Part shown: piece by piece, positions 2,325-8,157 of the stretch | Position numbering within the stretch: the first letter of the stretch is position 1 | Layout of the letters: every line of letters begins with the position of its first letter | Source: a virus | IMG/VR virus record: IMGVR_UViG_3300045988_078326 | Strand: one strand, 5' to 3' | DNA length: 64,000 nt | Notes under the pieces: model-generated | The model's database searches: none | The model's input: the letters and a program-made list of their open reading frames with translations, nothing else | What the model was told of the DNA's origin: nothing | Program-made: the position numbers and the translations under genes

Positions 2325-3428
2325 ATGTCAAGATACTATGATAAAGATGAGTTAAAGAGTAAACTTGAATTAGAACAAATTTATGATTTACTCGAAGCGT
2401 GGGGTGGTGAGCCTGAATATGTAGATGGCGGGCTCATCTCCCAAACTATATGTCATAATCTTCCCGGTGAAGGATCAAGAAAGTTATATTATTACGAAAA
2501 TACAAAACTTTTTAGGTGCTATACTGGATGCATAGATCCTACTTTTGATATATTTGACCTATGTATAAAGGTTAAAAAAAAGCAAGAAGATAAGAAATGG
2601 GAATTGTATAATGCTATGGATTATATAGCAGGATACTTTGGCTTCAACGGAGTAGAATTAGAAGATGAAAAAGAAGAATTAGAAGATTGGGATATATTTA
2701 GAAGGCATAATATTCAACTTCCAAAGTCCAAACAACCTATTTCTTTGAAAGAATATAATCCAATTATTCTTACTCGTTTTGCCTATCCTAGAATTTCAGG
2801 ATGGGAAGCTGAGGGAATTTTACCAGAAGTTAATAGAAGAAATTTTATTGGTTACTATCCTGGCGGAGGGCAAATAACAATTCCTCATTTCGATATTGAT
2901 AATAGATTAGTTGGAATAAGAGGGAGAACATTATCTTCTGAGGATGCAGAAAGATATGGTAAATATAGACCTCTTATGGTAAATAGACAGTTATACAATC
3001 ATCCTTTGAGCATGAATTTGTATAATTTAAACCATAGTAAAGAAAATATAAAAAAGGTGAAAGCCGCAATTATATTTGAATCAGAAAAAAGCTGTCTTAT
3101 GTATCAGTCTTATTATGGGTATGATAATGATATATCTGTGGCTTGTTGCGGAAGTAGTGTATCTAGCTATCATATAGATTTACTTAGGTCTTTAGGAGTT
3201 AATGAAATTATAATTGCTTTTGATAGACAATTTGTTGAGATTAGCGATGATGAATTTAAGAGATTAAAAGCAAAACTAATTCATATTTATAATAAATATA
3301 GTAAAAATGTTCGTATATCAGCTATATTTGATAAAGGAATGATTTTGCCATATAAAGCAAGTCCTATAGATAGAGGGCCGCAAATCTTTGAGAAGCTATT
3401 AAACGAAAGGATAATCCCTTATGAGTAA
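2325..3428 (+). CDS. dnaG: DnaG-like DNA primase
   Basis: CHC2-type zinc finger CHNLPGEGSRKLYYYENTKLFRCYTGC, followed by a TOPRIM-like region (IIFESEKSCLM...IIAFDRQFVE). 367 aa. Confidence 0.75.
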   Translation: MSRYYDKDELKSKLELEQIYDLLEAWGGEPEYVDGGLISQTICHNLPGEGSRKLYYYENTKLFRCYTGCIDPTFDIFDLCIKVKKKQEDKKWELYNAMDYIAGYFGFNGVELEDEKEELEDWDIFRRHNIQLPKSKQPISLKEYNPIILTRFAYPRISGWEAEGILPEVNRRNFIGYYPGGGQITIPHFDIDNRLVGIRGRTLSSEDAERYGKYRPLMVNRQLYNHPLSMNLYNLNHSKENIKKVKAAIIFESEKSCLMYQSYYGYDNDISVACCGSSVSSYHIDLLRSLGVNEIIIAFDRQFVEISDDEFKRLKAKLIHIYNKYSKNVRISAIFDKGMILPYKASPIDRGPQIFEKLLNERIIPYE

Positions 3429-5463: not shown

Positions 5464-5502
5464 TGATTGCGCAACCTCTTACTAAAGGAGGAAACAATCA
5501 CA

Positions 5503-6270
5503 ATGAGACGTTTTATGAGTATTATACTAAGTTTAATCATTTTATTATCTATAATATGTAGTTGCAATAGTCCTTTCATTTCTATTGCATCAGCATATTC
5601 AGTACCGTATAACAGCAGTATTAGTTATACCTATAATGATTTAGATACATTGGTTGAGCTTATTGCGGAACAAATCTCTAATATGAACGCCGCACATCAA
5701 ATGGCCGATGCTGCTAGACAGTTAGGCTATTCTGAAAATCATGATGTTATCGAACTAGCCGTGAATGAATATGATAAGGCGAATGAGCTAAGACAATCTT
5801 ATCAAGATGTATATGATAACCTCATGGAACATTGGCATCAAAAGGAAGAAGAGTACCCAGTGGCAACATATATTTGGAGCTATTTCAAAGACTTAGGTTA
5901 TAACGATCAAGTTTGTGCGGGCATACTTGGTAATATAATGACTGAAGTTGGTGGTAATACATTGAACATTCAATATGAATTAAGCAATTCTTCATATTAT
6001 GGAATGTGTCAGTGGAATAAAGCGTATTCTGAGGTTTGGGGAGCCTCATTAGAAGAGCAATGCAATTATTTGAAAAATACTATTGAATATGAATTTAATA
6101 CATTCGGTCACGCCTATAAGAAAGGGTTTGACTATAATGATTTTCTAAATATGACAAGTATAACTGATACCGCTTTGGCATTTGCGAAATGCTATGAGAG
6201 GTGTGGATCTGGAAGTTATACGACAAGACAAAATAATGCAATTATCGCGTATAATTATTTTGTAAGCTAA
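5503..6270 (+). CDS. secreted or membrane-anchored lysozyme-like protein (phage tail-lysozyme family-like)
   Basis: ATG 5503 has a strong RBS (AAGGAGG). N-terminal signal/TM is MRRFMSIILSLIILLSIICSC. A conserved block AGILGNIMTEVGG...YYGMCQWNKAYSEVWGAS resembles phage tail-lysozyme or glucosaminidase-like domains. Confidence 0.45.
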   Translation: MRRFMSIILSLIILLSIICSCNSPFISIASAYSVPYNSSISYTYNDLDTLVELIAEQISNMNAAHQMADAARQLGYSENHDVIELAVNEYDKANELRQSYQDVYDNLMEHWHQKEEEYPVATYIWSYFKDLGYNDQVCAGILGNIMTEVGGNTLNIQYELSNSSYYGMCQWNKAYSEVWGASLEEQCNYLKNTIEYEFNTFGHAYKKGFDYNDFLNMTSITDTALAFAKCYERCGSGSYTTRQNNAIIAYNYFVS

Positions 6271-6279
6271 AATAAATAT

Positions 6280-6315
6280 CTGCGGGCTGGCCGGAACCTA
6301 GACGACCGCCCGCAG
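6280..6315 (+). terminator. GC-rich stem-loop; putative terminator after the lysozyme-like gene
   Basis: ctgcgggc...gcccgcag is a perfect 8-bp GC stem with a 20-nt loop, conspicuous in an AT-rich genome. A T-run lies about 20 nt downstream, which is not classical spacing. Confidence 0.35.
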
Positions 6316-6380
6316 GAAACTAAAATGGCTTTAACTATTTTTTGAGGTAAAATCGTCGGTTACGCGGTTTTATAAAATTT

Positions 6381-6575
6381 TTGGACAAATCCTACGAATT
6401 ATACTATAATAATATTCAGATAAGATATAAGAAAATAGGAGGAATTATTATTATGGTAAATAAATGTGTTGTATGTGGGAAGGATTTTGAGGCCATAAAA
6501 TCCACAAAGAAATATTGCAGTAATGATTGCATGAATGCTGCCAGAAGAGCTAGATATGGAGAACGACAAATTTAG
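6381..6575 (+). CDS. small zinc-ribbon protein
   Basis: 64 aa with CVVCGK...CSNDC. Confidence 0.4.
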   Translation: MDKSYELYYNNIQIRYKKIGGIIIMVNKCVVCGKDFEAIKSTKKYCSNDCMNAARRARYGERQI

Positions 6576-6980
6576 ATGGTTACTAATTCAATGGATTTAC
6601 ATAATAAAAGCTGTCTTATTTGTGGGAAAGATTTTACGCCTAAAACCCCCGCCGCGAATAATCGTCAATGCTGTTATAATTGTATGCCAGATGGAGTTCA
6701 ACTAACTAGAGGAATGTTTCTAGCTAAAATAAAAGAGCACCTAGGTGGAAGATGTATAAAATGTGGATACGATAAATGTTTAAAAGCTCTAGAATTTCAT
6801 CATTTAGATCCCTCTAAAAAAGATTTTACTATTAGTAACGATCATTTTAAGTTAAAAGAAGCGGTTGAAGAAGTAAAAAAATGTATTTTAATATGTTCTA
6901 ATTGTCATAAAGAATTACATGATAATTTATGGACTATAGATGAACTAAATCTTGAAGAAAAGGAGGAAGTAGAACCATGA
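6576..6980 (+). CDS. HNH homing-type endonuclease
   Basis: Two Cys pairs and the HNH core (CIKCGYDKCLKALEFHHLDP...CSNCHKELH). Its stop overlaps the next start as ATGA. Confidence 0.7.
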   Translation: MVTNSMDLHNKSCLICGKDFTPKTPAANNRQCCYNCMPDGVQLTRGMFLAKIKEHLGGRCIKCGYDKCLKALEFHHLDPSKKDFTISNDHFKLKEAVEEVKKCILICSNCHKELHDNLWTIDELNLEEKEEVEP

Positions 6981-8157
6981 CTCTAACTAACATGCAAGAG
7001 CAAGGTTTGAAAATCGCTGTAGCCCGATACAAAGCTCATGAGCCCTATACTTGTATCGCTGGCTACGCCTGACCGGAACAGGGAAAAGCACCTTAATTAA
7101 ATTTATTGTGGCTGCTCTTAATATGTATGAGGAAGAGGTTGCTTATATCGCTTTTACTGGAAAGGCTTCAGAAGTACTGCGAGAAAAAGGGTGTCCTAAT
7201 GCTCAAACCGCGCATAGATTACTTTATTATAGTAAACAAATGCCTAATGGTAAGTTTGTTTATAAACCTCGGCCACATATTGAATATAGTCTTATTGTTG
7301 TAGACGAGGTATCTATGTTACCTATTGATATGTGGGAATTGTTACTTTCTCATGGAGTATATGTTATTGCTTGCGGCGACCCGTTCCAGTTGCCACCTGT
7401 AGACAAGACTAAAGAAAACCATATACTTGACAACCCGCATATTTTCTTAGATGAGGTAATGAGACAAGCTAAAGAAAGCGATATTATTGTTACAAGTATG
7501 AATATCAGAGAAGGCAAATCAATCGTTCCAATGCGAGGAAATGATACTCAAATATTTAGAAAACAAGAACTTGTAGCTGGGATGTACGGTTGGGCCGATG
7601 AAATTCTTGTTGCGACAAATAAGAATAGATTTGATATAAATTAGTTTATGAGACTTGATGCCGGAAGAAGCTCAGAACCAGAAAGAGACGATAAAGTTAT
7701 TTGTCTAAGAAATACGTGGGATATTTGTTCTGTTAAAGATGAAAACCCTCTTATCAACGGCACAATAGGTTACTTAAAAGATTTCTCTCTAGTTACTATG
7801 CAGTACAAAACTCTTACTGAATCTTTTACGGCTCAAATACTTCTTTCTAGTATTGAGACAACCTCTGGAGACACCTATCTTGATGTTCCTATTGATTATA
7901 ATTCGCTTTTAACAGGTAAGAAAACTTTTACTCCACAGCAAGAATATTATCTTAATAAAAGAAAGGATAATCCACCTCTCCCAATAGAGTTTAACTATGG
8001 GTACGCAATCACTACTCATAGAGCCTAGGGTTCACAATGGGACAATGTATTGGTTATAGAGGAAAATTTTCCTTTCGATAAAGAAGAGCATGCTAGATGG
8101 CTTTATACCGCCTGCACTAGAGCAGCAAAGAAACTAACATTGATTTTAAAGAAATAA
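6977..8157 (+). CDS. dda: Dda/RecD-like SF1B DNA helicase, frame-disrupted inside the Walker A motif
   Basis: N-terminus MTLTNMQEQGLKIAVARYKAHEPYTCIAGYA resembles the T4 Dda start and runs into TGA at 7070-7072. Frame -1 continues as LTGTGKSTLIKFIVAAL... through ORF 7051..7644. In-frame TAGs at 7642-7644 and 8026-8028 continue to TAA at 8155-8157. Motif V reads THRA(TAG)GSQ, matching HKSQGS, and motif VI reads YTACTRAAKKL. Confidence 0.7.

Follow-up and report, generated by a model that had tools for sequence, protein, structure and literature searches.

The virus record IMGVR_UViG_3300045988_078326 of IMG/VR carries a gene for a Dda-like helicase that is interrupted inside its Walker A motif by five nucleotides (nt), and that is directly preceded by a gene for an HNH homing endonuclease. 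We analysed a stretch of 64,000 nt of this record, referred to below as the window; the features of the locus are collected in Table 1. The helicase reading frame that opens at ATG 6977 runs for 31 codons, ends in GGC-TAC-GCC and is halted by the TGA at 7070-7072, at the coordinates given by an earlier reading of the sequence (the original prediction). That reading had also proposed that the -1 frame carries on beyond the stop, and this frame indeed reads (L)TGTGKSTLIKFIVAAL... up to the TAA at 8155-8157. The extra nucleotides can be described by three equivalent deletions (tgacc 7070-7074, ctgac 7069-7073 or cctga 7068-7072), and their removal yields ...IAGYAGTGKST, which restores the Walker A sequence of the family, GYAGTGKST, the consensus of 12 uninterrupted homologues being SGYAG[ST]GK[ST]T. 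The HNH gene upstream ends in a TGA (6978-6980) that overlaps the ATG of the helicase (ATGA), and its product matches PHROG 2255 'HNH endonuclease' (5.5e-22) and, weakly, Pfam HNH_2 (0.03).

With the five nucleotides skipped and TAG read as Gln, and only then, the repaired gene is predicted to encode a full-length Dda/RecD-like superfamily 1 (SF1) helicase, with Walker A and B (DE), motif III (GDPxQLPPV) and motifs V/VI (HxxQGS), the SF1B set, in one polypeptide. The repaired protein matches Pfam AAA_30 (6e-22), AAA_19 (3e-21) and UvrD_C_2 (9e-17), as well as PHROG 325 'Dda-like helicase' (2e-86) over residues 1-390. The proposal that the DNA comes from a recoded phage is borne out, TAG being a sense codon here and TGA still a stop: the long open stretches of the window (at least 200 codons each) grow from 5,443 to 17,748 codons once TAG is read as sense, and at the position of the TAG at 8027, within the motif HxxQGS, Gln is found in 31/31 aligned homologues. 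The phage most likely reads TAG as Gln, examples being the codon at 6573-6575 in the HNH gene and the two in the helicase body (Table 1); no tRNA genes, suppressor tRNA genes included, were found in the window. A connection between this recoding and the passage of the interruption, which the original prediction had considered plausible, was dropped, most gapped helicase bodies having no in-frame TAG, so that a hop would be no by-product of the altered code.

Table 1. Features of the interrupted helicase locus (positions in the window).
Feature	Position	Strand	Remarks
Mobile cassette, as delimited by recent transfer	6344..7082	+	739 bp, 100% identical to IMGVR_UViG_3300029726_000071 (L105/L039)
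Cassette-borne sigma-70-like promoter, TGGACA-17-TATAAT	6382..6410	+	Predicted from consensus match (11/12 positions); inside the identical block
HNH homing-endonuclease gene, 175 aa	6453..6980	+	Two CxxCGKxF...C..C zinc-ribbon modules and an HNH domain
Helicase codons 1-31, MTLTNMQEQGLKIAVARYKAHEPYTCIAGYA	6977..7069	+	Cassette-borne copy; ends at the take-off codon
Hairpin specific to gapped alleles	7016..7068	+	-19.1 kcal/mol, z = -3.6 in the window
Proposed take-off codon GCC (Ala31)	7067..7069	+	Ala codon in all 43 take-off/gap types
Coding gap TGACC	7070..7074	+	TGA stop 7070-7072; proposed landing triplet ACC 7072-7074 overlaps the stop
Helicase body, from resume codon GGA (Gly32) to TAA 8155-8157	7075..8157	+	360 codons; in-frame TAG (Gln) at 7642-7644 and 8027-8029

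The same interruption recurs widely. Among viral contigs, a search at the protein level found 14 homologues that include the N-terminus, of which 12 were continuous and two gapped; both gapped loci (~47% identical) have their break at the codon that is interrupted in the window, of 8 nt (TGAAATCC) in one and of 7 nt (TAAGGCG) in the other. Further scans used DNA patterns on viral contigs, an HNH-anchored search, bacterial genomes, and metagenomes with the gap left free, and all scans combined gave 88 non-redundant junctions, 77 of them gapped and drawn from independent viral and metagenome assemblies. Comparison with related phage genomes, which had been suggested as a check on the window, finds the interruption at one and the same codon in 77 non-redundant junctions, which fall into 43 combinations of take-off codon and gap (types) with 40 distinct gaps. 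The TGACC junction itself is present in independent assemblies (L039/L105, L159, L196, L202 and L211), alongside 39 other gap variants. A sequencing or assembly indel in the window, one of the readings first put forward, has only the prior plausibility of such errors in its favour, and with the same codon broken in dozens of independent assemblies by 40 different gaps it is scarcely conceivable.

The gaps follow a simple grammar. The preceding codon is GCC, GCT, GCA or GCG throughout (43/43 types), and a stop codon opens the gap in 42 of the 43 (TAA in 30, TGA in 11, TAG in one), the sole exception being a CGG. After the stop come an A-rich spacer of 0-4 nt, a last triplet and then, always, GGN. 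In the 35 gaps of at least 6 nt the last triplet is GCN (22), GTN (nine) or [A/T]CN (four) and nothing else, so that G[C/T]N accounts for 31/35 against ~8% expected, in variants that are not phylogenetically independent. The 5-nt class, to which the window belongs, always reads T[AG]AC[CT], its last triplet AC[CT] overlapping the stop. Some members, such as GCT-TAA-GCT-GGT (L199), GCT-TAA-GCC (L178) and GCC-TGA-GCA (L207), have the layout of a textbook stop-hop; TAAGCT, TAAGGTA and TAAAGGCA are among the natural gaps. In every variant, GYA-G[TSV]GK[ST]T is regained when the nucleotides between the Ala codon and GGN are left out. The exceptional junction (L119:~3100-3125) reads GGC TAT GCC [CGGTG] GGA, with the rare Arg codon CGG in place of the stop and a divergent N-terminus (GLELAVNRYH).

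Lengths of the distinct gaps are 5 nt (n = 5), 6 nt (n = 7), 7 nt (n = 10), 8 nt (n = 17) and 10 nt (n = 1), covering all three frame offsets. Since the net offsets are -1, 0 and +1, no single direction of frameshifting can explain the family. The original prediction had left a frameshift and a short bypass at the stop side by side; the bypass agrees with the full range of offsets and with the G[C/T]N rule, and a fixed -1 or +2 frameshift does not. A separate conventional recoding event for each gap length could be invoked instead, namely a -1 frameshift at 5 nt, readthrough at 6 nt, a +1 frameshift at 7 nt and a +2 or -1 frameshift at 8 nt, each leaving one to three extra residues in the P-loop. 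Some of these products, such as A-LTGT-GKS in the window, would retain the pattern [AG]xxxxGK[ST], and prfB is a well-known case of +1 frameshifting stimulated by a stop. Against this, four mechanisms would have to operate in one family and to switch between close relatives: the loci of L110 (TAAGGTA, 7 nt) and L109/L071 (TAAATGCA, 8 nt) are 92-98% identical, the gap length having changed in place. Both TAA and TGA would require readthrough, re-pairing of tRNA(Ala) is poor at -1 (CGC), +1 (CCU) and +2 (CUG), and no slippery sequence was found at the window junction. The identity of the last triplet would be left unexplained, and a natural gap-less allele encodes no extra residues. We therefore regard recoding length by length as decidedly unlikely.

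The gap forms the right edge of a mobile element. The 739-bp block shared with the second viral genome is flanked by DNA of only 50-75% identity and its identity ends 8 nt past the gap, the two helicase bodies being 48% identical at the amino acid (aa) level. By these comparisons the block is best described as a mobile homing-endonuclease cassette that replaces the 5' end of the Dda-like helicase gene, and that is made up of a putative promoter of its own, the HNH gene, the first 31 codons of the helicase in a fresh copy, and the short gap, which is non-coding. HNH homologues 53-100% identical to that of the window lie directly upstream of the 31-codon segment in 34 gapped loci; in total, 34 gapped loci have the HNH gene and 26 do not, as against none and 11 of the un-gapped loci (Fisher p = 4.5e-4). 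Comparison thus shows that the gap is inherited with the cassette and is always present where the HNH gene is.

In four loci (L028, L038, L077 and L088) the HNH gene is itself preceded by another copy of the helicase N-terminus, which is decaying. These copies end at GYA, for example in ...VISGYAV followed by two stops or in ...IAGYASLDKTSLVEFV followed by one, and they are what the insertion has left of the original N-terminus. Because they end there, the gap can be taken as one element with the HNH gene and with codons 1-31, inserted exactly at the GCN/GGN boundary of the Walker A sequence. An unrelated zinc-ribbon-like tail (...CIGGYDTIYHISCSNCKKPSP...) has become joined to the remnant in L038.

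Several pairs of loci capture the element in different states. Between L105 and L111 the flanks are 96-100% identical and the cassettes only 48-87%, as after replacement of one cassette by another; gapped L077 and un-gapped L019 share 90% identity in their bodies, as after an independent insertion; and L165 lacks the TAACT of L172 in a pair 96.5% identical, a precise loss of the gap that leaves L165 encoding exactly the product predicted for a hop. At L165:~2790 and L163:~7160, N-termini of the cassette type, complete with hairpin arms, run straight into the body in frame; the gap is missing, no HNH gene lies close by, and these two alleles appear to be revertants. Between the cassette and the lysozyme-like gene that precedes it in the window (5467-6270) lies a GC-rich inverted repeat (CTGCGGGC...GCCCGCAG, 6276-6316) whose conservation extends in part to L105; the repeat is a possible terminator, although a terminator scan did not call it, the loop being too long.

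The cassette-borne codons also encode a structure. In the window, the 5' arm of a hairpin is formed by GC.GUAGCCCGAUACAA (codons A-V-A-R-Y-K) and its 3' arm by UUGUAUCG..GGCUACGC, ending inside the take-off codon. Long hairpins form in the N-terminal segment (93 nt) of 25/25 gapped variants of the first round (mean -25.1 kcal/mol, z = -3.4), whereas the segments that encode the same protein region in nine un-gapped homologues form none (-11.3 kcal/mol, z = +0.3), and the 3' end of the hairpin falls inside the take-off codon in 62/66 non-redundant sequences. The inner stem varies by lineage, with pairing kept and register shifted. In an RNAalifold analysis of the codon alignment, only the near-invariant outer stem was supported, with one compensatory pair; this weak column-wise covariation is explained by the register shifts of the inner stems between lineages, and the evidence for the hairpin is thus the contrast between gapped and un-gapped alleles rather than covariation. 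The peptide GLK[IV]AVAR[YHF] is conserved in gapped alleles and is encoded by the codons that form the 5' arm, so that the constraint from a possible nascent-peptide signal in the ribosomal exit tunnel and that from the hairpin are inseparable. A small stem-loop at the gap itself (pairings of the CCUG/CAGG type) was also considered and dropped, the best helix anchored on take-off codon and stop having a mean of 3.75 bp against 3.59 bp in shuffled sequences.

A hairpin of this strength, found in gapped alleles only, ending at the junction and showing no preference for the sense strand (sense -22.4, antisense -24.1 kcal/mol), could also be read as guiding the removal or skipping of the 5-10 nt at the level of nucleic acid, by cleavage and ligation of the mRNA or by realignment of the polymerase. 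That reading leaves unexplained both the obligatory stop or rare codon after Ala and the agreement of the last triplet with the take-off codon. A search of Rfam gave no family match in the cassette region, and we know of no system that removes inserts of 5-10 nt from nucleic acids. We consider it very unlikely.

The interrupted genes show the marks of continued function. Complete bodies downstream of the gap are intact in 22/22 cases (354-386 codons), and pairs sharing a gap have a synonymous divergence (dS) of 0.25-0.6 and a ratio of non-synonymous to synonymous rates (omega) of 0.03-0.07, like un-gapped pairs; a pseudogene, as envisaged among the readings of the original prediction, is therefore unlikely. 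In the HNH-less pair L053/L102, identity is uniform at ~93% over flanks, gap and body, and the HNH-bearing pair L107/L110 has likewise diverged uniformly over flanks, cassette, gap and body. Divergence along the whole locus in these pairs implies that their bodies evolved under purifying selection while gapped. At least seven lineages without the HNH gene retain the N-terminus, the gap and the body.

These observations bear on the possibility that the gap is not bypassed at all, and that the cassette is a pure parasite inactivating the helicase, the intact bodies being recently killed or dispensable genes. Cassette segments are indeed often far less diverged than bodies (N-terminal nucleotide identity 0.96-1.0, against a body dS of 0.25-1.6), the transfer between the window and L105 is very recent, the block being identical throughout, and the gap-less allele L165 exists. 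The intact bodies, the two pairs that co-diverged over the whole locus at low omega and the lineages that kept the gap after losing the endonuclease all speak against inactivation; a parasite, moreover, would have no need to keep a 31-codon N-terminus with a start codon and a ribosome-binding site, an immediate stop and a matching landing triplet. Pure parasitism is accordingly an unlikely account of the family.

The body might alternatively be initiated independently, giving a truncated or two-piece helicase. The original prediction had named position 7051, a TTG, as a possible start in the window, and a body-frame TTG does lie eight codons upstream of the resume codon in 18/20 five-nt junctions. 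This TTG arises incidentally from ACT TGT, the codons for Thr and Cys, no Shine-Dalgarno sequence precedes 7051, and 29/64 junctions, including all eight with in-frame gaps, have no body-frame start codon. The product would moreover be without the conserved beta-1 strand of the P-loop and the helix that are found in all homologues. Independent initiation is, in our judgement, extremely improbable.

We regard it as probable, on comparative grounds, that the ribosome instead hops over the gap, in a natural, cassette-borne stop-hop of peptidyl-tRNA(Ala) in which the gap would be self-protective for the element. On meeting the TGA stop (in one relative, the rare codon) in its A site, the ribosome would stall, its P site occupied by peptidyl-tRNA(Ala) paired to GCC. 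The peptidyl-tRNA would then unpair, the mRNA would slide by 5 nt in the window and by 5-10 nt in relatives, and the same tRNA would re-pair with the last triplet of the gap, ACC in the window and GCN in most relatives. Gly-tRNA would next read GGA (GGN), and the product would be the uninterrupted helicase ...IAGYA-GTGKST.... In most of the family the landing triplet GCN is synonymous with the take-off codon. The predicted junction peptides differ, being AHEPYTCIAGYAGTGK (tryptic) for the hop, AHEPYTCIAGYALTGTGK for a -1 frameshift and AHEPYTCIAGYATGTGK for a +2 frameshift.

More tentatively, the hairpin may drive the mRNA forward by refolding behind the ribosome. If it acts in mRNA, its 3' arm would lie inside the ribosome at take-off, and refolding at the mRNA exit would pull the message forward. 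Refolding upstream hairpins stimulate +1 and attenuate -1 shifts (PMC6321510, PMC3639245), and a hairpin pulling the message forward by refolding has been proposed for gene 60 of phage T4 (bioRxiv 10.1101/2024.12.09.627546). It is likewise a more tentative suggestion, by analogy with MobA and gene 60, that the gap probably destroys the site at which the endonuclease itself would cut (the uninterrupted coding sequence for Walker A) and so spares the genome that carries it; the association between the HNH gene and the gap fits such a role.

Several points weigh against a hop. The case for translation through the gap is one of comparative genomics, and in the 5-nt class of the window the landing triplet AC[CT] matches tRNA(Ala) at just two of three positions. 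A take-off stem-loop of the gene 60 type is no better than chance at the gap, as the comparison with shuffled sequences given above indicates. Nearly all pairs of the hairpin are of the Watson-Crick type, 2.5% being G.U, and its antisense fold is slightly the stabler, so that the hairpin may act in DNA and not in mRNA. Cassettes are often younger than the bodies that they precede, and part of the purifying selection may predate the invasion. Most examples were collected through DNA patterns that fix GGCTAC or the hairpin arms, the searches free of this bias being the protein-based one (two gapped of 14 loci) and the HNH-anchored one (L118, L119); and the junction variants are related by descent, so that p-values overstate their independence.

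The closest known parallel is the bypass in T4 gene 60 with its HNH mobile element MobA, reportedly the subject of Bonocora et al. 2011. In MobA an HNH gene occurs together with a region of homologous replacement and with a bypass cassette whose gap, opened by a stop or a 'hungry' codon, blocks self-cleavage; Manning and Atkins (2022) term this bypass cassette 'unique' (bioRxiv 10.1101/2022.08.31.505936). As in gene 60/MobA, an HNH gene is followed in the helicase by an element-encoded replacement coding stretch and by a non-coding gap at the right edge; the gap starts at a stop codon, rarely at a 'hungry' one, the CGG of L119 having its parallel in gene 60 cassettes with a 'hungry codon'; and a single tRNA would serve both take-off and landing codons, through a synonymous landing triplet in most of the family and approximately in the window. 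In both systems, too, the endonuclease can be lost while the gap stays, gap-less derivatives exist, and one conserved site of one replication gene has been invaded repeatedly in related phages.

The differences are nevertheless extensive. The target is the P-loop of a Dda-like SF1 helicase here and the Toprim domain of topoisomerase II (large-subunit gene) in gene 60/MobA. The gap measures 5-10 nt and has no similarity to the 50-nt cassette of gene 60 (20 nt at minimum). The tRNA is that for Ala, with a landing triplet that is often near-cognate, rather than that for Gly or Asp. Gene 60 has a take-off stem-loop and none is detectable in the helicase gap, whereas the 5' hairpin is strongly conserved and abuts the take-off codon in the helicase, the 5' stem-loop of gene 60 being poorly conserved. 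Unlike in gene 60/MobA, the gene is not split into two proteins, and its whole 5' end is replaced, with start codon and promoter. The HNH protein has 175 aa and two zinc ribbons, against 269-279 aa for MobA. Differing in target, gap length, tRNA and protein outcome, the helicase cassette is an analogue of MobA/gene 60 and not a member of that family.

Stop-hops as such were constructed in Escherichia coli by Weiss, Dunn, Atkins and Gesteland (1987), with matched codons flanking a stop, re-pairing at least 5-6 nt downstream and 9 nt decoded as one amino acid (PMC5009743). These hops were artificial and of low efficiency, no natural in-frame stop-hops were known, and shorter counterparts of gene 60 with matched take-off and landing codons were described in the 2016 review by Atkins et al. 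as 'long presumed' (PMC5009743). The junction GCT-TAA-GCT-GGT of L199 has the same layout as the synthetic constructs; unlike them it is natural, conserved and apparently required for a replication gene. In Streptomyces phage phiHau3, a short bypass has been described at rare UUA codons of the terminase genes, with a 5' stem-loop proposed as stimulator (PMC10732093). This resembles the helicase gap as a short bypass in a phage gene that is triggered by a slow A-site codon, with a proposed 5' stem-loop; in contrast to the helicase gap, its trigger is a rare sense codon that needs the bldA tRNA, its proposed role is regulatory and no homing cassette is involved, and gene and host differ.

Homing genes inserted into reading frames are otherwise tolerated by means of group I introns, inteins and split genes (MobE/NrdA; 'fractured genes', PMC2677866). 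These solve the same problem, and such elements also act in the same helicase gene. The helicase cassette differs from them in that there is neither RNA nor protein splicing and no split protein, the 5' end being replaced and the gap, as we infer, hopped over. At L016:298-1791 an in-frame, intein-like insert follows GTGK of the same P-loop directly (GTGK/AQPIDTIIPTPSGN...); the Walker A site of the helicase has therefore been targeted by at least two kinds of selfish element. Inserts of ~1.2 kb are present after GDP[A/G] of motif III (L018:1735-3000, L016:1792-3000 and L032:1210-2468). They carry an open reading frame (ORF) of ~330 aa with zinc-ribbon-like CxxC motifs, and the exon resumes at QLPPV without a start codon, an arrangement that suggests an intron, the ORF being probably an endonuclease gene; the inserts had no match in Rfam at gathering thresholds. 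In Bacillus phage vB_BpuM-BpSp (H30, KT895374.1:49551-51075), the match to the helicase homologue falls into two parts, each annotated as a hypothetical protein of its own, and the homologue may carry another kind of interruption.

A DNA similarity search against deposited phages returned HNH fragments only. The cassette was found in no cultured or deposited phage, the nearest isolates being Enterococcus phages at 39.5% identity, and in the scan of bacterial genomes only two contigs of Clostridia metagenome-assembled genomes matched. Assignment of the hosts to Clostridia is weak, and fits the strong AAGGAGG ribosome-binding sites.

Our search of the literature found no description of an HNH/gap element in a helicase. 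Efficient natural bypassing has so far rested on few cases, namely T4 gene 60 and its homologues, the 'byps' of yeast mitochondria and the Streptomyces phage candidate. On the comparative evidence we consider it fairly likely that the helicase cassette represents a second, independent natural family of programmed bypassing, an obligatory tRNA(Ala) stop-hop across 5-10 nt that a hairpin may drive and that a homing cassette has evolved in order to live in the most conserved motif of an essential helicase without an intron or intein. It would then be a convergent solution of selfish DNA, the combination of an HNH gene, a replacement coding segment and a protective gap having arisen in a different gene and host group. 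For the study of bypassing, the family offers about 40 natural gap variants at one site together with gap-less controls, in effect a mutational series for take-off, hop length and landing; for annotation, it implies that gene callers will split or truncate such helicases in the genomes of gut and rumen phages. If this reading is true, T4 gene 60 would be no curiosity, and replacing the end of a gene while adding a gap to be hopped over would be a general strategy of selfish DNA.

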